Sequence record: PQ100635.1
Reading direction: 5' to 3' (one strand)
Length of the DNA: 64,000 nucleotides
From: Escherichia phage PNJ-9
A model generated the notes under the pieces. That model did not search any database. It was not told the origin of the DNA and worked only from the letters and a program-made list of their open reading frames with translations. How positions within the stretch are numbered: position 1 is the stretch's first letter; each line of letters opens with the position of its first letter. Shown in pieces: positions 6,289 through 58,257 of this stretch. Both the position numbers and the translations under genes were made by a program.

Positions 6289-7053
6289 TTAATTCATAAA
6301 CCCATCGTCAAACGGTGAATTTTGTCTACCACGGTTGTTAACTACTACGTATGGTTCAACGTATTCACTTGCCTCTGAATTGATTTGCTCAACTTCAGAA
6401 TATTCATCGATATTAATGTCATGGATACCGTCAAGATTTCTAACAGGGTTAAGTTCCAAGTCACTAAATTCAGGTATATTGATACCTTCATTTTTCTGAA
6501 GCACCGGATTGATTTCTTCACCAGAGTAAATAAACTTGCCTGCAGTAATTTTACGAATTGCATTTTTACCTACTTGATAGAATGGGTCATATGGTTCAAC
6601 CCAGTTAATCTCAAACAAACTGTTGTCCATTGGGAAGTATATTAAATCACCTTCCTTAGGCTCCTGATTGTTGACCTGGTGTTTGAAAAGACCTGGGTTA
6701 ATAGATAATGTAACTTCATCTTGAACTTGCATTCCGAAGTTGCTGAAGAACGATTTCGCTCCTTCATAACCTTCAAATGAGTTCAGATATGCTGCAAATT
6801 TCCATGCTTTAGTAAATTTATTTTTAAGGTCCTCACCAAAGATAAGGTCCACGGCAACATATTCACGTGGAACATAAAAACATTCAATACCGCGCATCTG
6901 TATGCTTTCTGCCACTAGAACATCGGCTAATGTCTGACTATTCTCATAGTTATTAAAATTGACAAATGGATTGAGGATTTCGGTCTCATTTGTTTGAGAA
7001 TACCCACCACGATTTTCTAGTTTGGCGAAAAGATTTTTATCATAAGTTGCCAT
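6289..7053 (-). CDS. 14: neck protein gp14
   Basis: 254-aa ORF; position and length match T4 gp14. Confidence 0.85.
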
Positions 7054-8013: not shown

Positions 8014-9462
8014 TTAAGCTGTAGGAAGTTCAACCCATGCACCATCTTTGCGAACATAGAATTTACCGTCTGAAGGAGCATCTTCAATATATCCAGCTTC
8101 CTTAAGAGTTTGGATTTCAGCTTCTGCAGCGGCCAAATCAGTTTCAAGAGTAGCAATTCTAGAAGTTAAACCATTAATTGTCGTATCGTGACTTTTAACT
8201 GTAGGCAATATACCACGTTCTTCAACAGTCGAACCATTTGGGTTGGTGCCGTTTATAAGAGTATTTAATGTGTTTACAGAACCCTTAATCCCTGTGGTAT
8301 TAGTCCCAACATCGGTTTGAATGTTCTGAATGTCATTACTCATCTCACCGATAGATCCTTCAAGCGCTCGAGTACGATAAAGCAAAGAGCCGTCTGGTTC
8401 CGGTTTCCCACCTGAAGCGTCAACACCAACTACGTTATTTAACCATGACACATTAAAACGCAATCCTGACGAAGAATCAGAGCCGACAACAGTGTTCAAT
8501 GCTCCAATAGCATCAGTATTGAGTTTAATACGTCCTTGAATTGTAGTAGGCAAATCATCGGTTCCAATGGCAGTTTCTACTGTAGTCAAACGAGGTTTAA
8601 TACCACCTGATTGATTGAGCTCAAGATTAATGTCGTTTATTGCTGAACTATTCGCATTAGTTGTAGTAATAATAGAAGTCGTATTAGGATACCCAATAGA
8701 CTGTTTAATGCCATCTAAGTCAGCATTTTGACGCGACAAAGTTAAATCAATACCGGAAAGACGACTAAATACTGGAGTAGTGAAAGAAGTGCGAGGTCCC
8801 ATTTCTTCGCGTAAGTGTTCGACTTCATTAGTTAAAGAGCCGACGTCAGAATCAGCAAATTTAGTTTCTAAATCAGTTAATCGAACACCGTGGTCAACAA
8901 TCACAGAGCTATTAGTCATAATACGGCGTTTCATACCAGTGCTATCATTTCCTGGAGTAGGAACCCCATTAATATCTTGACCAGTATATTGTCCTAATTC
9001 ATTTTTAATCCAAAGCAGGTCGTTACGAACGGTTCTATAAACTGAATCTGTTTCCTGATTATAAACACCAATATCATCAGTATTCGCATCAATATGTTCA
9101 TTCAAATCATTCAATTCACTAGCATGGGTTTGAACTGTGACTTTAATGACATCAATATCTTGGGTGTTCTGACCAATCTGTGCAAGTGCTTCGACGTCCC
9201 CGGAAACATCTAAAATACCTTGAATAACTTTTATATCTTCATTGGCTGTATTCAAAGAAGATGCTATAGTTTTAATATTAGTATCTAACGCTTCTACGTT
9301 ACGTTGAACTTCAACAATAGGACGGTTCATTACACCTTCAGAACCGTATTTTGTATCAGCACCGGTAATTTCTTCGTCGTTTTTAATCCATTCAATACGA
9401 CTCTGACCCGCGTCTGGCGGGCCGTCAACATATGGTAAATCTACCAGAGTTATATCAGCCAT
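8014..9462 (-). CDS. wac: fibritin (whisker antigen control protein)
   Basis: 482-aa ORF with coiled-coil body and C-terminal foldon GYIEDAPSDGKFYVRKDGAWVELPTA; N-terminus matches T4 Wac as recalled. Confidence 0.9.
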   Translation of the reverse strand: MADITLVDLPYVDGPPDAGQSRIEWIKNDEEITGADTKYGSEGVMNRPIVEVQRNVEALDTNIKTIASSLNTANEDIKVIQGILDVSGDVEALAQIGQNTQDIDVIKVTVQTHASELNDLNEHIDANTDDIGVYNQETDSVYRTVRNDLLWIKNELGQYTGQDINGVPTPGNDSTGMKRRIMTNSSVIVDHGVRLTDLETKFADSDVGSLTNEVEHLREEMGPRTSFTTPVFSRLSGIDLTLSRQNADLDGIKQSIGYPNTTSIITTTNANSSAINDINLELNQSGGIKPRLTTVETAIGTDDLPTTIQGRIKLNTDAIGALNTVVGSDSSSGLRFNVSWLNNVVGVDASGGKPEPDGSLLYRTRALEGSIGEMSNDIQNIQTDVGTNTTGIKGSVNTLNTLINGTNPNGSTVEERGILPTVKSHDTTINGLTSRIATLETDLAAAEAEIQTLKEAGYIEDAPSDGKFYVRKDGAWVELPTA

Positions 9463-11045
9463 TATTTTACCTTAATAATATAGTTTAAAGAAATATTCCA
9501 TGGACGAGTTTCATTTCCAATTAATTCTGGACGATTCATGGTATATTTAGAGTTACGCTGAGACGCTGGATCAATTTCATATCCTTCGTTAGTAAAATAT
9601 GAACGGTTATCCCAGTCAAGTCCTTTACGAGTACCAACAAAGTTTGAACGACGAGTATTACCAAATGCACCGGAATCATCGTGTTCGCCAAAACCACCAG
9701 CATGTTTATGATATGACATCTGTTGTTTTTGCACTTCACCGACATATCCACCAGTACAACCAACTCCTAAACGAGGTTTACCAAATTGGTCATTACCATT
9801 AACATTAGGGTTAGTTAAATGTGTACCACGACCTGAGCCGCGAACAAATAATCCACGCATATCAGGCAAGCCCGGGTTAGAAGAGCTACCACCATATCGT
9901 GTCCCAATTCTGGAAGCATATACCGGACATTCTGAAGCAGAAACGGTCCCACCGTGACAGAAGCGCCAGTCAGAACTCGGTAAACTATCTGCAGCCCACA
10001 TTGTAATAGAGCCAACAGGAAGAATTCGGTCTAATTCATTTTGAGTCACAATACGATTGCCTTGAATATAACCACCAGTCATATTGACATTACCAGTTAT
10101 ATTAGCGCCACCGGAACCAACCGTCAACGTATTATTAATGCGAAGAGTGCCATTAATAGTTTGTCCGCCTCGTTGGTGGATAACATCAGCATTCCAAGCA
10201 AGGGCAGAAGAACCATCACCACCTGATTGGCTACCCGCTTGTGTAGTTAAACGAACAACTCCACGTAAAGAAGTTGTAGCCCCGCGGCCGTTTAATGTTG
10301 CGCCAGTCACTACAACTGAAGAGTTGTTACTATTTACTTCAGTCTGTGTCCCTAGTTTAACGACGCCTTTATTAGTTTCTGATGCTACTGAATTCATAAA
10401 GGTATAAGGTGAAATTGCATAGCCTTCACGCAGGGTGCCTTGTTGTGCTTGTGCAACTGTAGCTAAACGAACAACACCGGTAATAGATTCGGTGGCGTCA
10501 CTATTATTTGGAGCAATTTGCGAAATAAGTTTAATTGCTAATTGCTGTGTTTTTAACGGGGTCATTGCCGTTGTATCGTCAGAACCAGCTAATGCCGCAG
10601 CAGAAGTTGAAATTTTAATTACACCATTTGTTGCTTCTGTTGACACTTTTGTCTGAAATACATTGTCTATTTTTTGATTCAATTTAAGCGGAGTAATTGA
10701 TGCATCGTCAATAGCTCCGGTTACTGCTTCATCTTCAGTAGCATAACGAGTTAAACCATACTGAGTTTCGGTTGCATTAGGATATTGTAGACGAGCATTC
10801 AGTGTTGCCGGAGTAACAGCTTTACTATTATCTAATCCATCAATAACTTCTTGTGGAGTAGCTATTTGAATAATTCCTGGTGTAGTAGTTGTTGCTTCCG
10901 GTACGCCATTAACACCTGAAGGAGAAATAGCAGCTAATGCGGCTTGGACATTAGTGACTGTCTCTGGAAAATTCGACCCCGTAGGGTCGAATTCAACGTA
11001 AATAGATTCGTTTGAAACGTGTTGGTATGTATTGTTATTACTCAT
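9462..11045 (-). CDS. 12: short tail fibre protein gp12
   Basis: 527-aa [29 protein letters not shown]...; matches T4 gp12 as recalled in sequence and length. Confidence 0.9.
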
Positions 11046-18546: not shown

Positions 18547-20516
18547 TGTGAAATAGGCTCCAAATCTATAGTTAAGTACTGAGGACGTAAGTCATTTTCG
18601 AATACGATTAAAGAACCATCCTTTGTAAAAATAATATCATCTGCAGGGTCGGAATAAAGTTCAATTGTTTGAACTTCAAAACGGTCTGAAGTGAGGTCAA
18701 TTTTAGCAATGTTCCAATAAATCGAATCGGCAGGATAATTCACTTCACCAATTGAATAGTATTTGTTTCGTCCGTCAGTAACAGTAAGTTTATTAAAATC
18801 ATTACCTGTATAAGGTTGTATATTTTCGTTTTCAACAACATCACCGTCTGCAAATGGACCAATAATAACTTGACCTATGCCACGATCATTACGGTCAGAA
18901 GATACTATGCGAACACCGTATTTAATAGTTTCGTTTGCATTTTCTGGATTAGGTCTGTGTGAATCAAACGAGAATATATTAGATTCCATCGATCTATCTT
19001 TAATCTGATTATTGTATTTAATACCGGCCTCAGGCGTTTTATAGAAGTTTTGTACTTCGCGAACCATTTGAATAGTAGCTGAAGAACCAATAATAGAAAT
19101 ATCTGCATCATCGACATAAGTTAGCATTTTAGATTTTGCAAACGATGAGTTAAAAATTTCTACATCTTCAATATAATAACGGTCTATTTTATTAATAATC
19201 TGCCCTTCAAGATATTGTTCTGATTCCTGGAGTTTATTCAAAGCGTACGTAACTTTGATATTCATTTTGATAAACAAATAATCAGGCGAAATAACAACAG
19301 GTGTAATAGTCCCTAAGTTATAATCATTTAAATAGTTTTTGATATCATCACGTTGAACAGAAGTCAAATACAACCCAGACTTAGGTTTAGCAGCAATAAA
19401 TGCGTACCCTGGTTTAGATGAATCTGTGAATGTTTGAACCGCTTGAATAATAGAACCAAACCGCTCAGAGACGAATGTGTCATAGTCGGAAGCTGTTACA
19501 CAACGTTGTTGAGTTTCGCGTTTAATTGTGCCTAATTCGCGGATACGTTCAATATCTTCAGGGTCACCACCACCATCGGCCCCGACAAAGTCCGGGTTGT
19601 TGCTAGGGTTCTCGTTAATACCGATTACCGTGATATTAGCTAATGTATCAGCATAAGAAAATCCTACAGCACCGTTAGCATCTGCGCCGTTAGTAGAAAT
19701 ATACTCAATTACGATTTTAGAACCCTGAACAGGTTTAAGGCCGCCAATGTAGTTAGATGTTAACGCACCTTCTGATGTGTTAATAGAGATTTCGCCTTCA
19801 CCAAAATAAAATTCGGTGTTCCCATCAACTGTTTCACGCATATAATAGATTGTTGACGTAGAACCAGCGTGAACCATCGACTTACGAGTCCAGTTAATCC
19901 ATTCTGCTCCGTCAACATACAACTTAACCAAATTACGGTCAATATTCTTATCACGAATAATGATAGGTTTTAATCTATCAAATGTTAATTCAGTGCGAAC
20001 AATACGTCCTTGAGCTAATCGAAGACGTGGAAAATATTGGTTATTTTTGTCTTTAACTACAATGACATCTTCAGTAGAAACAAAGTTATACGGGTTAACA
20101 GAAGTATCTTTAGCGTATGCTAAGAAACGAGTGCCACGTGGAATGGTGATATAGTTTCTATTTAATGCATCCGTACATGTGAGCATAATTTCTGTTTGTG
20201 CTGCTGATTTAGATGAAGGCAGATATCCGTTATCTTGAGCCGCTTGTACAACAGAACTACGCAAGTTTGCAGTACGCATAAAACTTTCATACACTGCACT
20301 ATTACTAAACTGTTGGATGTAAAGAGTGTTATATGCTAAAAGGTCACATAATACGTTTAAACGCGAACCTTCAAAATCATAATCAAGAAATTCATTCTGT
20401 CCATTGAGCCATTCGATAATGTTCTGTTTGATTTCGGCAAATGTGCCCCCGATAAAAATCTCGGGAATAGCATTCGCTGTTCGTGTTAATTGATAATTTA
20501 CAGGAGTGTTTGCCAT
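18543..20516 (-). CDS. 6: baseplate wedge protein gp6
   Basis: Start placed at the internal ATG giving MANTPVNYQLTRTANAIPEIF (matches T4 gp6 N-terminus as recalled), 657 aa; the ORF track extends 19 codons further upstream. Confidence 0.9.
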   Translation of the reverse strand: MANTPVNYQLTRTANAIPEIFIGGTFAEIKQNIIEWLNGQNEFLDYDFEGSRLNVLCDLLAYNTLYIQQFSNSAVYESFMRTANLRSSVVQAAQDNGYLPSSKSAAQTEIMLTCTDALNRNYITIPRGTRFLAYAKDTSVNPYNFVSTEDVIVVKDKNNQYFPRLRLAQGRIVRTELTFDRLKPIIIRDKNIDRNLVKLYVDGAEWINWTRKSMVHAGSTSTIYYMRETVDGNTEFYFGEGEISINTSEGALTSNYIGGLKPVQGSKIVIEYISTNGADANGAVGFSYADTLANITVIGINENPSNNPDFVGADGGGDPEDIERIRELGTIKRETQQRCVTASDYDTFVSERFGSIIQAVQTFTDSSKPGYAFIAAKPKSGLYLTSVQRDDIKNYLNDYNLGTITPVVISPDYLFIKMNIKVTYALNKLQESEQYLEGQIINKIDRYYIEDVEIFNSSFAKSKMLTYVDDADISIIGSSATIQMVREVQNFYKTPEAGIKYNNQIKDRSMESNIFSFDSHRPNPENANETIKYGVRIVSSDRNDRGIGQVIIGPFADGDVVENENIQPYTGNDFNKLTVTDGRNKYYSIGEVNYPADSIYWNIAKIDLTSDRFEVQTIELYSDPADDIIFTKDGSLIVFENDLRPQYLTIDLEPISQ

Positions 20517-20524
20517 TTTAATTC

Positions 20525-20818
20525 CTATTTTATAAAGACTTTTGACGAGGCCTGAGAAACAGTATCCCCGCATGAAATTGGGTCAGCCATTTGAACAGCC
20601 TTTTTACCGGTGACGTATACTTTAGATGTACGAGGTTCAGTAACACCTCCATGAGTCTCGTATGGTTTTTTAATTTCTGTATGAGGTGTTATTTGGTCTC
20701 CTGCCACAAGAACAGGAATACCGCCGGTGAATACTTTAGATTGGGAAGCATTTATTACAGTAGGAGGCCATGCTTCATGACCTGTTGTAACGCACTTGTC
20801 GTAACTTAAGCCAGACAT
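20525..20818 (-). CDS. 5.4: baseplate spike tip protein gp5.4 (PAAR-like)
   Basis: 97-aa product from the internal ATG: [21 protein letters not shown]...; matches T4 gp5.4 as recalled. Confidence 0.8.
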
Positions 20819-29263: not shown

Positions 29264-29342
29264 GAATTATGTGTTATTATTAATTCATACCCTCTATTAC
29301 TAAAGGTGCTCTAAAGTGCCTTTCATAATAGAAAGTTATTAA

Positions 29343-49303: not shown

Positions 49304-49573
49304 ATGAAAAAATTAGTAATTGGTTTATTCGCAGTAATGATTGCGTTCTCTGTTGGTGCAGCCAGCGGTAGTGCAGGAGCTGGTGGTAACCAAACTTCTG
49401 GGCCTTCTAATGGTTCGGTAAATGCATCACATTCTCAGGGTATTGAGAACATTAAATCAAGCTATATTAATAGCACGGCCGGACAAGCAACTGAAGCATG
49501 GTCAAAGGGACGAGTAGTTACTCGCTCCGTATTCTGTGATATGCCTAATTATGTTGCTAAGTGCGATAAGTAA
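49304..49573 (+). CDS. small secreted protein
   Basis: 89-aa ORF with signal peptide MKKLVIGLFAVMIAFSVGAASG and a Gly/Ser/Asn-rich mature region; late promoter upstream, hairpin downstream. Confidence 0.5.
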   Translation: MKKLVIGLFAVMIAFSVGAASGSAGAGGNQTSGPSNGSVNASHSQGIENIKSSYINSTAGQATEAWSKGRVVTRSVFCDMPNYVAKCDK

Positions 49574-51100: not shown

Positions 51101-51129
51101 GTTTACAAGGTCTATGGTTGTGTTATTAT
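51101..51129 (+). promoter_or_regulatory. T4-type early promoter
   Basis: GTTTAC 51101-51106, 17-nt spacer, TATTAT 51124-51129; GGTCTA/TAGACC arms. Confidence 0.5.
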
Positions 51130-51684: not shown

Positions 51685-51746
51685 ACGCTTTACCCAAGGA
51701 CGGGTTATAATGGTTTTGAGTTCCAATTCAATCTGAGGAAATAGTT

Positions 51747-52742
51747 ATGAGCATTACATCTGATGCGGTAAAACATGAAATTAACGGTTTATGTGCTTCA
51801 CAGATTAAAGTGTGGTTTAAAGACCATAATGATCGCAGAGCACTTAATTATGAGCAAATTGCTATCCAAGTTCATCAATTACTGACTAGTAAATTTGATT
51901 TTCATATGCCGTCTGAAATCTATACTAATCTACCGCGAGCGCTTATTAAAGCGTGTAAAGGTTACGGAAAATCAATGGCCGATGGAATCTTCAGCGCGCT
52001 GAATAAACTTAACGTTCTGTCGATGATTAACTCTAACAACATCCTGCGTAATCTAGGACGTACTGATTTGTTCGGTCGGGAACAGTGTAAAATGCCTTTG
52101 AAATGGATTGTTGCTCATCTTAACGAGAACCAAACACGTTTTATGGCCGTATCAGCACGCTTACAAATGGGCCTAGATCGTCAGATGAACTTTAAAACTC
52201 ATCCACGTTATTCAGGTTCAACAGACTTTTATAAATGTGAGCTTCAAAAGGTTGCAGGTAAAACTGTCTTAGTAGTTCGTGTAACGTTTGAAGGACGACG
52301 ACAAGGATATTTTGACCTAATCGGCTCTGGTCTTAAACATTGCGGATTTATTGACGAAGTTGATATCAAGCGAGACAGCATTGGATACCGTATTGGATAT
52401 GTTTGTACTCTTAAAGAAGAGATTTCAGGACCAGTACCAGGACTAAAAGACGTTAGATATAAAGACGAGCTCGTTGAAGAAATAAAAGAAGTTGAATATG
52501 ATATCAACCAAGAAGATGCTCTTAAAGACCTTATTGATGAACTGAACCAAGACGTTATTCCGGTTCAGAAATTTGAATCAAAACATGCTGAGCAAATCAA
52601 ATACTTTGAAGCTTTGATTAACGAACTTAATGTAACTATTCAACAGACTGACGATGAAATCTCGCGATTAGCAGGCTTAAACGGTAAAAATAAAACAGAA
52701 CGAGCTAATCTTATTCAGGTAGTAAAACTTCTTAAGGAATGA
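51747..52742 (+). CDS. hypothetical protein with C-terminal coiled coil (first of three)
   Basis: 331-aa ORF; about 230-aa globular region, then heptad-like Glu/Lys-rich tail. Confidence 0.5.
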   Translation: MSITSDAVKHEINGLCASQIKVWFKDHNDRRALNYEQIAIQVHQLLTSKFDFHMPSEIYTNLPRALIKACKGYGKSMADGIFSALNKLNVLSMINSNNILRNLGRTDLFGREQCKMPLKWIVAHLNENQTRFMAVSARLQMGLDRQMNFKTHPRYSGSTDFYKCELQKVAGKTVLVVRVTFEGRRQGYFDLIGSGLKHCGFIDEVDIKRDSIGYRIGYVCTLKEEISGPVPGLKDVRYKDELVEEIKEVEYDINQEDALKDLIDELNQDVIPVQKFESKHAEQIKYFEALINELNVTIQQTDDEISRLAGLNGKNKTERANLIQVVKLLKE

Positions 52743-52771
52743 TGTACAACCAAGGATGGTTGGAGTATAAT
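52743..52771 (+). promoter_or_regulatory. T4-type early promoter (copy A)
   Basis: TGTACA 52743-52748, 17-nt spacer, TATAAT 52766-52771; 26 nt ACAACCAAGGATGGTTGGAGTATAAT identical to copy B. Confidence 0.55.
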
Positions 52772-52797
52772 AAATTTTTCAACATGAGGAATATAAA

Positions 52798-53757
52798 ATG
52801 GCTTCTATTACACGTAGAGAACTTATCAAAGAATTTACCTCGAACGCATATACCCCAGGACCTAATCCTATCCGTATGCCTGTAAAGACTCCTGAAGAGA
52901 TTGAGGAAATCTGTTCATATTATGGGATTAATTCTCGTAAGTTTACTCAATTTGAATGCGTTACTAACACACCCGTTAAAGAGTTCATTAAAAATGGTGA
53001 GTTCAGCCGTTTATTGGCCAAACAGAAACTTCGTAATTTTTGTATCGGCGGCAACGGACAATATTTTGCTAAACAGTTCAGAAATAACCTTAACAATCTG
53101 ATGGCCATTGCTTCTCGTATTCGTCCTCAAGCAATTAACATGAAACATTTGAAATATACTTACGATAAGTTAGAAATCATGGTTATCAGTGAGAACGAGT
53201 TCACTCTTACGTATAAACCTAAGAATGATAACGTTGCTCGTGTATTCCACCAAGCGTTGGAAGTTTTAGGTGATAATATCCACCAGATTAAAGCAATTTA
53301 TTCTCGTGAGCTTAATATTATCAACCCTATCAAGAATAAGGGCCATATCGCTATCCAGGCTCGTGTATCTGTTGGTAAAAAGGTTCCTGCGCCATGGTGG
53401 CACAAAGACTCTGAATACTATCAAAATCTTAAAAAGGAAAATGCAACGTTCGAAGCATCGCTTACTGGGACCCCAATTGAACAGGCCGAAGTCCTAAGTG
53501 CTTATTCTACTTCGGGTAAATCAATGTTTAAAGGTTTGCCAAATGTGTGCAAACTGTCTGCAGTAAAACTAAATGTTTCTAATGACCTTCTTCCGGCCGA
53601 AGATTACCATTACAATCAAATCAAGGCCACTATGGACCAACTGTCTGTTGAACTTGACAAAGCACAAGCTAAGCTTCGTGATGCTCAAAGTGTTGTAACG
53701 AATCTCCAGTTGCAGTATTCTAAACTTTTTAACGCAATGAATGCATTAAAATCATAA
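52798..53757 (+). CDS. hypothetical protein with C-terminal coiled coil (second of three)
   Basis: 319-aa ORF with the same architecture as its neighbours. Confidence 0.5.
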   Translation: MASITRRELIKEFTSNAYTPGPNPIRMPVKTPEEIEEICSYYGINSRKFTQFECVTNTPVKEFIKNGEFSRLLAKQKLRNFCIGGNGQYFAKQFRNNLNNLMAIASRIRPQAINMKHLKYTYDKLEIMVISENEFTLTYKPKNDNVARVFHQALEVLGDNIHQIKAIYSRELNIINPIKNKGHIAIQARVSVGKKVPAPWWHKDSEYYQNLKKENATFEASLTGTPIEQAEVLSAYSTSGKSMFKGLPNVCKLSAVKLNVSNDLLPAEDYHYNQIKATMDQLSVELDKAQAKLRDAQSVVTNLQLQYSKLFNAMNALKS

Positions 53758-53761
53758 ATCA

Positions 53762-53791
53762 GTTTACAACCAAGGATGGTTGGAGTATAAT
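53762..53791 (+). promoter_or_regulatory. T4-type early promoter (copy B)
   Basis: GTTTAC 53762-53767, TATAAT 53786-53791; duplicated core shared with copy A. Confidence 0.55.
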
Positions 53792-53819
53792 GAATCTATC
53801 TTAACGAGAGGAAAATATT

Positions 53820-54770
53820 ATGACACGTTCACATTACATTGATTATTTTGCAGGTCTTATCGCTAATGTTCATGCCCAACGTGCTTCTGGTTCATTAGGA
53901 TTTGATGTTCCACACCGAGATGTAGTAAGTGGTATTCTTCGCGATTTTGGTACATATACCGGCCAAGAAAATCATATCTGTAAAGATACTCAAAATGCGT
54001 ATTCTCATTCATTAGGGACACTGCTTCAATGGTTCAAACGTTCTCGTTTATTATCTTCTACTGTAGCTCGCGATAACATTAAAAACTTTATGAAGCCGAG
54101 CTTTATTAAATCTGTGACATCTAAAACCGATTTGGTTGAATTCACTATTGTTAATGATGTTAAAAAGACTCATTTGGCTGATTGGTTATCTACCATTCCT
54201 GAAACTAAATTTGCTGATAAATTTGCTTGTGAATTCAATAACCAAGTGAATATGCTTTTTAAACATTCTCGTAAATTATTCACAGGTGGCGATGATCGTA
54301 CAAATACAGTTCATGTTAAAGATTGGGTTACTGCAGTATTCAAACCAACCGGTAATGGTAACGCATCATTATCAATTGATATCCAGGTTCCTTATTACTA
54401 CTCACGTAATCTCGGTACCATGAAAGCCGAAGAAATTAATAAGCACAACAAAACCATTCGTTCGCTGTCTTATAAACTTCGCATGATGTTAAGAATCATG
54501 GACGTGGTAGAAATGTATGATGAAACCGAAGATAACGGTTCGATGTTATTCAGTTCTCGTATTCAAATTAAGCTGAAGAATCCTAACGAGTATAAGCCTA
54601 AGCCTATTAAAGAACCTAAAGCAGAAAAGGTTGATATCATGGCTGAAGAACGTGAGTACCTCAAATCTCGTCTGAAAGAAGTCGAAGCCCAGATTGCAGA
54701 ACAAACTAAATCGTTAAAAGCTCTGAATGCGAAAGCGGACGGTTTACGAAATGCCATTGAGGTTTTATAA
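53820..54770 (+). CDS. hypothetical protein with C-terminal coiled coil (third of three)
   Basis: 316-aa ORF; C-terminal EEREYLKSRLKEVEAQIAEQTKSLKALNAKADGLRNAIEVL helix. Confidence 0.5.
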   Translation: MTRSHYIDYFAGLIANVHAQRASGSLGFDVPHRDVVSGILRDFGTYTGQENHICKDTQNAYSHSLGTLLQWFKRSRLLSSTVARDNIKNFMKPSFIKSVTSKTDLVEFTIVNDVKKTHLADWLSTIPETKFADKFACEFNNQVNMLFKHSRKLFTGGDDRTNTVHVKDWVTAVFKPTGNGNASLSIDIQVPYYYSRNLGTMKAEEINKHNKTIRSLSYKLRMMLRIMDVVEMYDETEDNGSMLFSSRIQIKLKNPNEYKPKPIKEPKAEKVDIMAEEREYLKSRLKEVEAQIAEQTKSLKALNAKADGLRNAIEVL

Positions 54771-55075
54771 TGAAACTACGTCTTTTAGAGGATATTGATA
54801 TGAGCACTAATCACGGCTTGGTTAAGTTTATTGACGATAGTTCAAAGATTGAATTTGTTCAGCGAGATAAAATCCACGGTGAAGAAGAGTTCGTTCCTCC
54901 AGCATGGAACGAAATCATGAAAATGGTTGAACGACGTGAAAATGCTGCCAAATCGGCAGCAAAACATCCATGTCCGGAATGTGGAACTATCCAAGTCCAA
55001 CTGGTTAACTGGACCACTGATAACTTGAAATTGAAATGCCGTAAATGCTTCCACAAATTTGAGAGAACATTATAA
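54770..55075 (+). CDS. zinc-ribbon protein
   Basis: 101-aa ORF with CPECG...CRKC four-Cys motif. Confidence 0.5.
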   Translation: MKLRLLEDIDMSTNHGLVKFIDDSSKIEFVQRDKIHGEEEFVPPAWNEIMKMVERRENAAKSAAKHPCPECGTIQVQLVNWTTDNLKLKCRKCFHKFERTL

Positions 55076-55488
55076 TGAGATATAGCCTTCGTTGTTTTAT
55101 CGCAGCTTTAGTTTTTGCTATTATTCCATTCATTTGGAACAGCCAGAATACTTACATGGAAACTAAAGTAATTCCTGTGGAGGTAGTGGAATTAATCTCA
55201 GGCCAATCTACAGGAAAATATTCTAAATTGGAATTTATTGCAGTTTATAAAGATGAACAAGGTCGAGTTTTTGACAGGCATGTATCACCGTCGTTTTATA
55301 CGCTTCTGAATAAAGGTGATACGATAGCTATAGAAATTCGTGAGATGGATATCAAACAAACTACTAAAGATAACTTGATTTGGTTCTTTGGTACAGTGTT
55401 GTTGGTTTCTATCTGTATCACAGGTTTTATTACATGTATTGTATTTGGCATTGCATATTTAATCGATGAAAGGAAAAATAATGTTTAA
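55075..55488 (+). CDS. membrane protein
   Basis: 137-aa ORF with N- and C-terminal hydrophobic helices. Confidence 0.5.
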   Translation: MRYSLRCFIAALVFAIIPFIWNSQNTYMETKVIPVEVVELISGQSTGKYSKLEFIAVYKDEQGRVFDRHVSPSFYTLLNKGDTIAIEIREMDIKQTTKDNLIWFFGTVLLVSICITGFITCIVFGIAYLIDERKNNV

Positions 55489-57038: not shown

Positions 57039-57512
57039 ATGTTATTATCTGGCAAATTATACAAAGAAGAAAAACAAAAATTTTATGATGCACAGAATGG
57101 TAAGTGTCCTATTTGCCACCGTGAATTAGACCCTGATGTTCAAGGTAACCATCTTGACCACGACCACGAATTAAACGGGCCAAAAGCAGGTAGAGTTCGT
57201 GGGTTACTCTGTAATCTGTGCAACGCAGCAGAAGGCCAAATGAAGCATAAGTTCAACCGTTCCGGTCTTAAAGGACGTGATGTCGACTACCTCGAATGGC
57301 TTGAAGCTCTTCTTGCTTATTTGAAACAAGATTATTCTGATAATAATATCCATCCTAATTTTGTTCCAGACAAAACTAAAGAGTTCTCAAGACTAGGTAA
57401 AGAGGAAATGATGGCTGAGATGCTTCAAAGAGGATTTGAATATAATGAATCTGATACCAAAACACAATTAATAGCTTCATTCAAAAAGCAGCTTAGAAAG
57501 AGTTTAAAATGA
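57039..57512 (+). CDS. 49: endonuclease VII (Holliday junction resolvase) gp49
   Basis: 157-aa ORF MLLSGKLYKEEKQKFYDAQNGKCPICHRELDPDVQGNHLDHDHE...; near-identical to T4 gp49 as recalled. Confidence 0.9.
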   Translation: MLLSGKLYKEEKQKFYDAQNGKCPICHRELDPDVQGNHLDHDHELNGPKAGRVRGLLCNLCNAAEGQMKHKFNRSGLKGRDVDYLEWLEALLAYLKQDYSDNNIHPNFVPDKTKEFSRLGKEEMMAEMLQRGFEYNESDTKTQLIASFKKQLRKSLK

Positions 57513-58046
57513 AAATTGAAAAAGAAATTGAAGGATTAATTCATAAAACTAATAAAGATCTTTTGAACGAGAATGCTAATAAAGATTCTCGTGTTTTTCC
57601 AACTCAACGGGACCTTATGGCTGGTATTGTGTCTAAGCACATTGCCAAAAATACGGTCCCGTCTTTTATTATGAAAGCACATGAAAGCGGAATTATCCAT
57701 TTCCATGATATTGATTATTCTCCTGCTCTTCCATTTACTAATTGCTGTTTAGTCGATTTAAAGGGGATGCTTGAGAATGGATTTAAATTAGGCAATGCTC
57801 AAATTGAAACGCCTAAATCGATTGGTGTTGCTACTGCAATTATGGCACAAATTACTGCGCAGGTTGCTTCCCATCAATACGGTGGAACTACATTTGCGAA
57901 TGTAGATAAAGTCCTTTCTCCTTATGTTAAACGCACCTACGCAAAACATATTGAAGATGCAGAAAAATGGCAAATCTCTGATGCGTTGAATTATGCCCAA
58001 TCTAAAACAGAAAAAGATGTCTATGACGCGTTCCAGGCGTATGAGT
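57509..58046 (+). CDS. nrdD: anaerobic ribonucleoside-triphosphate reductase NrdD, exon 1
   Basis: ORF from ATG 57509; predicted 5' splice site after T58046, where exon ATGAGT pairs with the intron guide GCTCAT ending in a U-G pair; the downstream stop is intron-encoded. Confidence 0.75.
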
Positions 58047-58257
58047 TAATTTAATTCAGGCTCATGTAAAACCGGTCTAAACGGGGAACCTCTCTAGTAG
58101 ACAATCCCGTGCTAAATGTTCTTTTGAACTAAATGCCTAACGACTAACCGTGATGAATGTAGCGGTGTAGAATAGAAGCTAATGCTATTCGAAACGGCCG
58201 GCATCGAAAGATGAAGATATAGTCTAATCTGCATGGCGACATGCAGCAGTCATCTTG

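Follow-up and report, generated by a model that had tools for sequence, protein, structure and literature searches.

Three early nrdC-block proteins of Escherichia phage PNJ-9 as candidate anti-defence paralogues, and an early promoter cassette with a covarying spacer hairpin

The nrdC.11–gene 49 block of T4 is an early-transcribed, hyperplastic region, and its counterpart in Escherichia phage PNJ-9 raises the question of what the three consecutive proteins of similar length encoded there are, whether they are related to each other, and what is meant by the identical promoters that precede the second and the third. We analyzed a stretch of 64,000 nucleotides (nt) of this phage (sequence record PQ100635.1, one strand, 5' to 3'), hereafter called the window. 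An earlier note, made from the sequence alone, had described three plus-strand open reading frames (ORFs) of 331, 319 and 316 amino acids (aa), which were recovered with the same positions and lengths in an ORF listing and are called A, B and C here (Table 1). The note took them for paralogues, each with a globular region and a Glu/Lys-rich helical tail, and offered host-range or anti-defence factors as a guess at their role. Over the 5 kb around the locus, identity is 100% with Escherichia phage PNJ-6 (RB69 group, genus Mosigvirus) and 97% with many relatives, and the genes here are collinear with those of T4 between nrdC.11 and gene 49. With moderate confidence, we propose that A, B and C are early accessory anti-defence paralogues, accompanied by a portable promoter cassette that carries an AGGA hairpin.

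Each of the three proteins has a recognizable counterpart in T4. A matched T4 NrdC.6 with 29% identity over 269 aa (BLASTP, E = 1.6e-18) and the protein family phrog_2257 (E = 3e-127), and C matched T4 NrdC.3 with 58% identity over 316 aa (BLASTP, E = 4e-123) and phrog_1435 (E = 5e-105), with a weak further match to T4 NrdC.4 (BLASTP, E = 8e-5); PF26897 is precomputed on all homologues of C. B is 25% identical to T4 NrdC.5 (BLASTP, E = 2.5e-10), and residues 15–318 matched positions 1–307 of the Pfam model PF23882 (DUF7235) at E = 9.3e-122, with 406.7 bits against a cut-off of 30; T4 NrdC.5 (E = 5.3e-126) and the Dhakavirus homologue match this model too. The position of B is likewise syntenic, between nrdC.6-type and nrdC.4/3-type genes. 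The PHROGs of A and C are separate families of unannotated function, and NCBIfam returned nothing informative on A, B or C. Many GenBank and UniRef entries label such proteins 'thioredoxin'; as no thioredoxin or glutaredoxin model of Pfam or NCBIfam matched any of the three, this label is a carry-over of the locus name nrdC.x. A side observation concerns T4 itself, where the annotated nrdC.6 (275 aa; T4 locus 9067–9894, minus strand) ends early. The conserved tail (...RLSGLSSKAKSEREKLIKIVDLLKS) is encoded out of frame with it, in the 70 nt of 'intergenic' sequence ahead of nrdC.5 (T4 locus 8997–9066), and relatives have an intact ORF of 295 aa; the early end is either a frameshift of T4 or an annotation or sequencing issue.

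The primary sequences of A, B and C had been described as diverged beyond obvious alignment, and BLASTP among the three indeed gave nothing better than E = 2.6. Comparison of family profiles revealed the relationship. One alignment was built per family from the homologous loci of Tequatro-, Mosig-, Dhaka- and Gaprivervirus genomes, and the alignments were compared by hhalign. The NrdC.3 and NrdC.4 profiles matched each other with a probability of 98–99%, and the NrdC.5 profile matched that of NrdC.3 with 62–92% and the joint NrdC.3+4 profile with 95–98% (E = 2e-8 to 2e-11); the NrdC.6 profile matched the joint NrdC.3+4+5 profile with 91–95% (E = 1e-6 to 1e-8). All of these family alignments are collinear over 250–290 columns. 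The unrelated neighbors NrdC.10 and NrdC.11, as well as reversed profiles, remained below 1% probability. In addition, when the query alignment was shuffled by single columns or by 15-column blocks, none of the 40 shuffles reached the observed scores of 52.9 and 65.2, the null scores being 14–21 with a standard deviation (SD) of 2–3.5 and a maximum of 33. The full-length matches of the enriched profiles thus lie at least 10 SD above the shuffle nulls, and the proposal of paralogy is supported, with the qualification that the relationship would be very distant.

The shared features are not confined to the helical tail, as the strongest local match of NrdC.6 to NrdC.3+4+5 lies in the globular region (columns 66–192 against 51–197). 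Two helical motifs were found in all four families, F-K-x-[SGN]-x-[LF]-S-x3-A-x3-[IL]-[KR]-N-[FL] in the N-terminal region and F-x3-F-[RN]-x5-[LIF]-[LMF]-x2-[AS]-[SA]-[RK] in a second helix, and both motifs and a C-terminal L-K-x end align in the same order across the NrdC.3, NrdC.4, NrdC.5 and NrdC.6 families. It should be noted that, without the bridge sequences T4 NrdC.4 and NrdC.5, MAFFT fails to align this N-terminal motif correctly across families. After the two motifs, the common layout continues with a small beta region, a variable linker and an amphipathic C-terminal helix of 45–55 residues that ends in L-K-x. On the strength of these profiles and motifs, we consider it well supported, if not proven, that NrdC.3, NrdC.4, NrdC.5 and NrdC.6 form one superfamily and that A, B and C are paralogous members of it.

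Structure prediction gave a compatible picture at low confidence. The AlphaFold model of A, based on its own five-sequence alignment, had a mean predicted local distance difference test score (pLDDT) of 48.5 and was unusable, and that of C, based on a 48-row alignment of all three families, reached 58.0 and was reasonably confident only at residues 1–80 and in the C-terminal helix. Obtained from different alignments, the two models nevertheless place their elements in the same order: the chain begins with five or six helices, followed by two longer ones, and a beta-hairpin (residues 162–179 in both models), further strands and a low-confidence linker lead to the C-terminal helices. This common order lends weak support to paralogy. 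Searches for a known fold were negative, in that Foldseek found nothing in the PDB with E < 0.04 and the sequence profiles had no PDB match. Against viral models (BFVD), Foldseek retrieved the families themselves and, at E = 1e-4 to 2e-3, proteins of 300–370 aa from several T4-like phages, among them phages of Acinetobacter, Serratia and Enterobacter. The hits beyond the families themselves, which include T4-like phages of Aeromonas and Salmonella as well, had template modelling (TM) scores of only 0.16–0.36. The C model retrieved E5EYP1 and the A model E5EYP0; as these accession numbers are consecutive, our guess is that the two are neighboring genes of one phage. Syntenic ORFs of 240–300 aa are present in Acinetobacter phage 133, and their hhalign matches (E = 0.008–0.05, probability ≤5%) were not significant; we make no claim that the family reaches this phage.

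The description of the tails needed revision. A heptad pattern is present in the last 40–50 residues, and the helix spans only about 45–55 aa rather than forming a coiled coil of 90 aa. By a crude heptad score, the pattern is strong in B (268–319) and C (about 275–307), and weaker and broken by Gly in A (281–309). The model of C has a single long helix at 275–315 (pLDDT 72–81), and that of A has helices at 256–330 with low confidence; a low-confidence linker precedes the helical tail. As for composition, the last 70 aa are Glu/Lys-rich in C (31% E+K, against 16% overall), mildly so in A (21%), and not in B (13%).

The distribution of the superfamily is narrow, and its members evolve rapidly. 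By tblastn, 741 phage records contain the A family and 653 the C family, with close relatives of B in 132, and all matches belong to T-even-type phages of enterobacteria (Tequatro-, Mosig-, Dhaka- and Gaprivervirus). An exhaustive hidden Markov model search with A over 1.84 billion representative proteins yielded 6 relatives, about six distinct contigs with the family were found in IMG/VR, and a word-indexed protein search returned close relatives only. A search of the PNJ-6 genome, covering 164 of its 170 kb, gave no further family member. Within Mosigvirus, A is 68–87% and B 80% identical among relatives, compared with 94–100% for the neighboring genes; in comparison with T4 and the other genera, A and B retain 22–33% identity, against 78–90% for NrdC.10, NrdC.11, NrdC and gp49. 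A and B are thus the most diverged genes of the block. C is 96–97% identical within the genus and 58–77% across genera. The note had spoken of diversifying paralogues, and in the sense of gene-wide positive selection this is rejected, since the gene-wide ratio of nonsynonymous to synonymous divergence (dN/dS) is 0.12–0.20. At the same time, the synonymous divergence (dS) of A and B is 2–10 times that of their neighbors. Raised dS together with dN/dS well below 1 indicates that divergent alleles were probably imported or exchanged at A and B, rather than produced by diversifying selection along the whole gene.

Individual members have also been lost in nature. ESCO47 lacks ORF B; in Pinarejo (L026, 4935–5150) nrdC.6 is deleted save for its start and the last ~45 codons; and in ACG-C40 (L025, 4730–5141) a deletion has left the first 71 codons of nrdC.5 fused to what remains of nrdC.3, its last ~65 codons. 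We take the NrdC.3/.4/.5/.6 family to be ancient, fast-diverging, early, non-essential, and confined to T-even-type phages of enterobacteria. The rapid divergence of A and B relative to the rest of the block and the individual natural losses fit accessory anti-defence genes. Across the superfamily, no conserved polar residues of catalytic type were found. A side observation in the same interval is a two-pass membrane ORF of 66–71 aa that lies between the A-type and B-type genes in moha (L024, 3699–3899) and in Dhaka- and Gaprivervirus (L022, 6669–6869; L023, 6754–6969; L027, 4671–4874) and is absent from the window.

The second component of the locus is the element in front of B and C. As had been noted, two mismatch-free copies of the 26-mer ACAACCAAGGATGGTTGGAGTATAAT stand at 52746 and 53766; the window has no other match at up to 3 mismatches, with 0 expected in shuffles. 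The identity extends to 27 nt (TACAACC...TATAAT), and the copies are 1020 nt apart. The reading of the 26-mer as a promoter was supported by a promoter scan, which found TGTACA (B) or TTTACA (C), a 17-nt spacer and TATAAT, with scores of 10/12 for the copy before B and 11/12 for that before C, the latter being the best in the 16 kb scanned. Within the spacer lies an inverted repeat that forms a hairpin, in which the AGGA loop is invariant and the stem varies; at least eight different stems were observed in four genera: CAACCA/TGGTTG, CATCCA/TGGATG, CCACA/TGTGG, AGCCA/TGGCT, ACCCA/TGGGT, TTATACCA/TGGTATAA, ACACCA/TGGTGT and TTCCA/TGGAG. The same element with other stems precedes T4 nrdC.7, nrdC.4 and nrdC.3 and the nrdC.4 genes of Dhaka- and Gaprivervirus.

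The evidence for the hairpin is covariation. Among 15 distinct sequences, which were picked for a CCA-AGGA-YGG core, a choice that favors the two innermost pairs, 87.8% of the cells were paired, compared with 64.8% in shuffles (reached in 0 of 500). Four of the six pairs change on both sides in a compensatory manner, and slid controls gave 19–42%. A loose 'unbiased' scan for AGGA in promoter context returned mostly non-promoter sites and was left out of the statistics. The closing A-U pair is often A.C, so that the loop may comprise six bases. Upstream of A there is a counterpart of the element upstream of T4 nrdC.7, with its TTTAC box just 11 nt from the -10 box, so that it is not a canonical promoter; ESCO47 has ACCCA-AGGA-TGGGT at this place. 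The hairpin is conserved before ORF A and T4 nrdC.7 even though the -35 box there stands only 10–11 nt from the -10 box, a non-functional spacing, and this argues for a role beyond promoter geometry. For the transcript that also carries A, the likely source is the early-type promoter upstream of the NrdC.8 homologue, since the element directly before A lacks canonical spacing.

GGAG follows the stem in five lineages, including the B, C, T4 nrdC.3, Dhakavirus and Gaprivervirus copies, and before B and C this GGAG stands immediately after the hairpin and overlaps with the -10 box (52762–52775 and 53782–53795). Directly 3' of the hairpin before B, GGAGUAUAAUA agrees with the RegB/S1 consensus GGAGAAUAAAA (PMC1702504) at 9 of 11 positions, and the -10 box could therefore double as a RegB site on read-through RNA. 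For the hairpin alone, an alternative whose chances we put somewhat short of even is that it acts in read-through RNA, as an intercistronic 3'-end or processing element or a weak terminator, rather than in promoter DNA, and that the adjacent GGAGUAUAAU could also serve as a RegB/S1 site. This would agree with the near-consensus RegB site and the GGAG after the stem, with stem covariation that includes G-U pairs (window 31498; DK-13), with the retention of the hairpin before A and T4 nrdC.7 despite the non-functional spacing, and with the report of PeSL stem-loops as terminators. It sits less well with the lack of a U-tract directly after the stem, the modest predicted stability and the lack of an Rfam family matching the hairpin region; moreover, the hairpin invariably borders on the -10 box, and this position hints at a connection with the function or the origin of the promoter.

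A recombinant example of the hairpin is found in ESCO47, the natural isolate without B. At its A–C junction (~6979–7036), the single cassette contains a chimeric hairpin, CAACCA-AGGA-CGGATG, which has one internal mismatch and combines a left arm of the window type with a right arm of the Dhakavirus/AnYang type. Judged from these arms, the chimera is consistent with a crossover inside the loop, and loop crossovers have been reported for PeSL cassettes in RB49 (PMC2839356). Separately, a sequence with the architecture of the cassette hairpin, TTCAAA-GAGGA-TTTGAA followed directly by TATAAT, was observed at 57424–57446 of the window inside gene 49 (57039–57512). It lies in the coding sequence of endonuclease VII just upstream of nrdD, is conserved in T4, ESCO47 and G8, and may be an internal promoter or a chance occurrence within coding sequence.

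The function of the superfamily has been addressed experimentally in one case. A T4 clone with compensatory deletions fails to plate on ECOR17, and deletion of dsr1 in the host restores plating; plasmid-borne dsr1 of ECOR17 protects MG1655, and plasmid-expressed T4 nrdC.5 restores infection (Srikant, Guegler and Laub, eLife 2022, PMC9391042). This is the only experiment found on any superfamily member, and the literature searched held no functional mention of nrdC.3, nrdC.4 or nrdC.6, nor of the Pfam names. As T4 NrdC.5 is a DUF7235 protein like B, the guess of host-range or anti-defence factors fits the sole experiment at hand. A neighboring gene of the block, 49.2, inhibits the OLD defence (PMC13096335).

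We propose that A, B and C would be made within the first minutes of infection from early promoters read by the host sigma-70 polymerase, and would bind host proteins as stoichiometric, non-enzymatic binders. The C-terminal helix would probably serve self-association, and the variable body the choice of target. B would be the counterpart of T4 NrdC.5, which neutralizes the NAD-depleting Dsr1 sirtuin defence, and of the three it would be the likeliest to target a sirtuin of Dsr1 type, leaving A and C for other defence systems or variants. The cassette, with a spacer hairpin that would be under selection, would give each gene its own early expression, and would also provide a short patch of homology for swapping or deleting genes of the block. 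The role as stoichiometric inhibitors of host defence proteins is suggested by the combination of early expression, dispensability, rapid turnover of alleles, lack of enzyme signatures and the NrdC.5 precedent.

Several points weigh against this proposal. With the shallow alignments that standard tools produce (effective number of sequences ~1.6), profile–profile probability was 0.1–1.4% and not significant; paralogy thus depends on the enriched profiles, since shallow ones miss the link. The NrdC.6 family matched any single other family only weakly (E = 0.016–0.1), and both structure models were of such low confidence (pLDDT 48.5 and 58.0) that the folds are not comparable; no PDB analogue was found. 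Selection on the genes is purifying gene-wide, by the dN/dS values given above. The tested function is confined to T4 nrdC.5, and B is only ~25% identical to T4 NrdC.5, so that its target may differ. The hairpin is thermodynamically ordinary (z-scores of -0.4 to -2.9); its stability was dropped as an argument for this reason, and the case for it rests on covariation. The data themselves cover homology and expression signals; the remainder of the functional reading, including direct binding to host targets and self-association of the proteins by way of their C-terminal helices, is what we infer from them.

The principal alternative for the proteins, which we regard as unlikely and yet worth keeping in view, is that they are early host-takeover or housekeeping modulators of nucleic-acid or nucleotide metabolism, and that the anti-Dsr1 activity is a special case or indirect. 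The genes indeed sit among nrdC, nrdD, gene 49 and tk, which serve nucleotide metabolism and recombination, each of the three families is retained in hundreds of phages, C is well conserved within and across genera, and dN/dS is low. On the other hand, single genes are lost in natural isolates that remain viable, A and B diverge far faster than their neighbors, and the proteins have neither enzyme-like conserved residues nor, in Pfam and the PDB, any similarity to metabolic proteins. Furthermore, the anti-defence activity of gene 49.2 against OLD implies that the block is rich in such genes. An extension of the anti-defence reading, which is more speculative and somewhat less probable than the metabolic alternative, would treat NrdC.3–NrdC.6 as modular inhibitors of immune sensors with a swappable recognition surface, and the hairpin as both an intercistronic RNA signal and a preferred crossover point. 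A conserved scaffold and an oligomerizing C-terminal helix would carry a rapidly replaceable recognition surface, each paralogue would meet a different E. coli defence system, of which Dsr1 would be the first known, and crossovers in the hairpin would let T-even phages swap inhibitor cassettes between genomes.

The identical promoters had been read as a sign of tandem duplication, and this reading did not stand. A third exact copy of the 26-mer was found in PNJ-6 outside the window, between dexA and an unrelated gene of 164 aa, and a copy with 4 mismatches (ACATCCAAGGACGGATGGAGTATAGT) lies on the other side of the same gene, so that this gene is flanked by two cassettes in the style of PeSLs (plus strand, ~20710–20735 and ~20153–20178; found on the minus strand at 29266 and 29823). 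In addition, several other early promoters of the PNJ-6 genome contain related spacer hairpins centered on AAGGA. The repeat is thus partly what the note had named as its own refutation, a generic promoter consensus: it is a subclass of the sigma-70 early promoters of T-even phages and not a private mark of duplication. That the 27-nt promoters before B and C nonetheless record a recent duplication of a promoter-plus-gene unit is improbable. Two exact copies at a distance of 1020 nt, each preceding a paralogue, and the presence of the same element type before T4 nrdC.4 and nrdC.3 would agree with it. The genes behind the identical promoters, however, are beyond BLAST similarity, so that the promoter identity must be much more recent than the duplication of the genes; the copies have different flanks, and the third and the 4-mismatch copies flank an unrelated gene next to dexA. 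Spread or homogenization of cassettes, as for PeSLs (PMC2839356, PMC4122927), explains the pattern better. Least probable of all is that A, B and C are unrelated and the profile matches an artefact of composition and coiled-coil periodicity: the empty BLASTP comparisons, the non-significant shallow profiles, the three separate families held by PHROGs and Pfam and the structure models too poor for comparison would allow it, but the best local match of NrdC.6 falls in the globular region and not in the tail, reversed profiles and shuffles that keep composition or local periodicity reach at most 33 against the observed 53–65, and two motifs and the L-K-x end are collinear in all four families.

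The features of the locus are collected in Table 1. A zinc-ribbon protein and a membrane protein had been said to follow C, and both ORFs are present, with overlaps of stop and start codons; as its start overlaps the stop of C, the zinc-ribbon gene is in the same operon as C. The membrane gene of nrdC.7 type is downstream of nrdC.2 here and upstream of nrdC.6 in T4, which represents a transposition within the block. Two further observations concern the surroundings. An ORF of 89 aa (49304–49573) with an N-terminal segment resembling a signal peptide lies between the NrdC.11 and NrdC.10 homologues; it occurs in Mosigvirus relatives and has no counterpart in the T4, Dhakavirus or Gaprivervirus loci. 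The nrdD gene is split according to the PNJ-6 annotation (57509–58054 and onward; L002, 10510–13001): a homing-endonuclease gene separates an N-terminal ORF of 181 aa from the remainder of nrdD.

Table 1. Features of the A–B–C locus in the window (positions are those of the whole stretch).
Feature	Position	Strand	Details
Early-type sigma-70 promoter	51102..51129	+	TTTACA, 16 nt, TATTAT with TG; upstream of NrdC.8 homologue; promoter scan
Hairpin ACCC-AAGGAC-GGGT, then directly TATAAT	51692..51711 (hairpin 51692-51705)	+	upstream of ORF A
ORF A, 331 aa, T4 NrdC.6 homologue	51747..52742	+	phrog_2257; PF26899 precomputed on homologues
Early promoter cassette before B	52743..52771	+	-35 TGTACA 52743-52748; GGAG; -10 TATAAT 52766-52771
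Spacer hairpin before B, CAACCA-AGGA-TGGTTG	52747-52762	+	
ORF B, 319 aa, DUF7235 = NrdC.5 family (phrog_2351)	52798..53757	+	PF23882
Early promoter cassette before C	53763..53791	+	-35 TTTACA 53763-53768; GGAG; -10 TATAAT 53786-53791
Spacer hairpin before C, identical to that before B	53767-53782	+	
ORF C, 316 aa, T4 NrdC.3 orthologue, weak T4 NrdC.4 paralogue	53820..54770	+	phrog_1435; PF26897 on homologues
Zinc-ribbon ORF, two CxxC pairs, T4 NrdC.2 homologue	54770..55075	+	51% identity (BLASTP)
Small membrane ORF, T4 NrdC.7 homologue	55075..55488	+	41% identity, E 5e-26 (BLASTP); phrog_2547

The nrdC–nrdC.11 block is a classic 'dark' hyperplastic region of T4, in which two genes have recently been linked to anti-defence (nrdC.5 against Dsr1 and 49.2 against OLD). 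If the genes analyzed here form one paralogous family, three or four uncharacterized genes of more than 650 sequenced coliphages become candidates for counter-defence, and a deletion and host-panel strategy like the one used for nrdC.5 may reveal their targets, which matters for the choice and engineering of therapeutic T4-like phages. In addition, the covarying hairpin inside a sigma-70 spacer adds a small regulatory puzzle to a phage group that has been studied very thoroughly. The genes are known T-even ORFs and the stretch is identical to a deposited phage, so that nothing here is new in kind; the superfamily link, the natural pattern of presence and absence, and the covarying spacer hairpin with its recombinant example are new here and represent a modest insight. 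An anti-defence role of A, B and C, of a known kind, is plausible by analogy with NrdC.5.

Comparison with the T4 block shows both conservation and turnover. T4 NrdC.5 and B are alike in the full-length match to the Pfam model, the position in the nrdC block, early expression, similar length and a C-terminal helix ending in ...NALK/N, and differ in that their identity is ~25% and the Mosigvirus B is 20 residues shorter. For A and C, the gene order is the same as that of T4 nrdC.6 and nrdC.3. A gene of NrdC.4 type is not found in Mosigvirus, and NrdC.3 is not found in Dhaka- and Gaprivervirus. As to mechanism alone, the proposed one resembles that of DSAD1, the inhibitor of the DSR2 sirtuin defence, which is likewise reported to be a small early phage protein that blocks a defence with a SIR2-domain NADase by direct binding. 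The target of DSAD1 is DSR2 and not Dsr1, its phage belongs to another group, and it has no sequence relationship or detectable fold relationship to the present proteins.

The promoter cassette can be compared with two known elements. The early 'uber' promoters of T4 (Hinton 2010, PMC2988021) have in common with it the 17-nt spacer, the TATAAT box, a -35 box of GTTTAC type and A-rich sequence upstream, and they contain extra conserved positions outside the canonical elements (PMC2988021); in the literature searched, no description was found of a covarying inverted repeat within their spacers. The PeSL elements (Arbiol 2010, PMC2839356; Comeau 2014, PMC4122927) are similarly short units that combine a strong sigma-70 early promoter with a stem-loop and lie between the variable ORFs that make up hyperplastic regions. 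The cassette agrees with the PST/T4 promoter consensus TTTACW-N17-TAYWAT, and the sigma-70 spacing of about 17 nt is present before B and C, compared with 11 nt before A. Both kinds of element occur in multiple copies (three identical and further related ones here), are associated with indels of adjacent genes, and show recombination within the element (ESCO47 here; a loop crossover in RB49). The published PeSL stem-loop lies upstream of the -35 box and is a terminator (PMC4122927), whereas here the stem-loop is contained in the 17-nt spacer directly next to the -10 box, its AGGA loop is conserved, and it lacks a U-tract. In its behavior, the element thus resembles a PeSL cassette in a variant arrangement.

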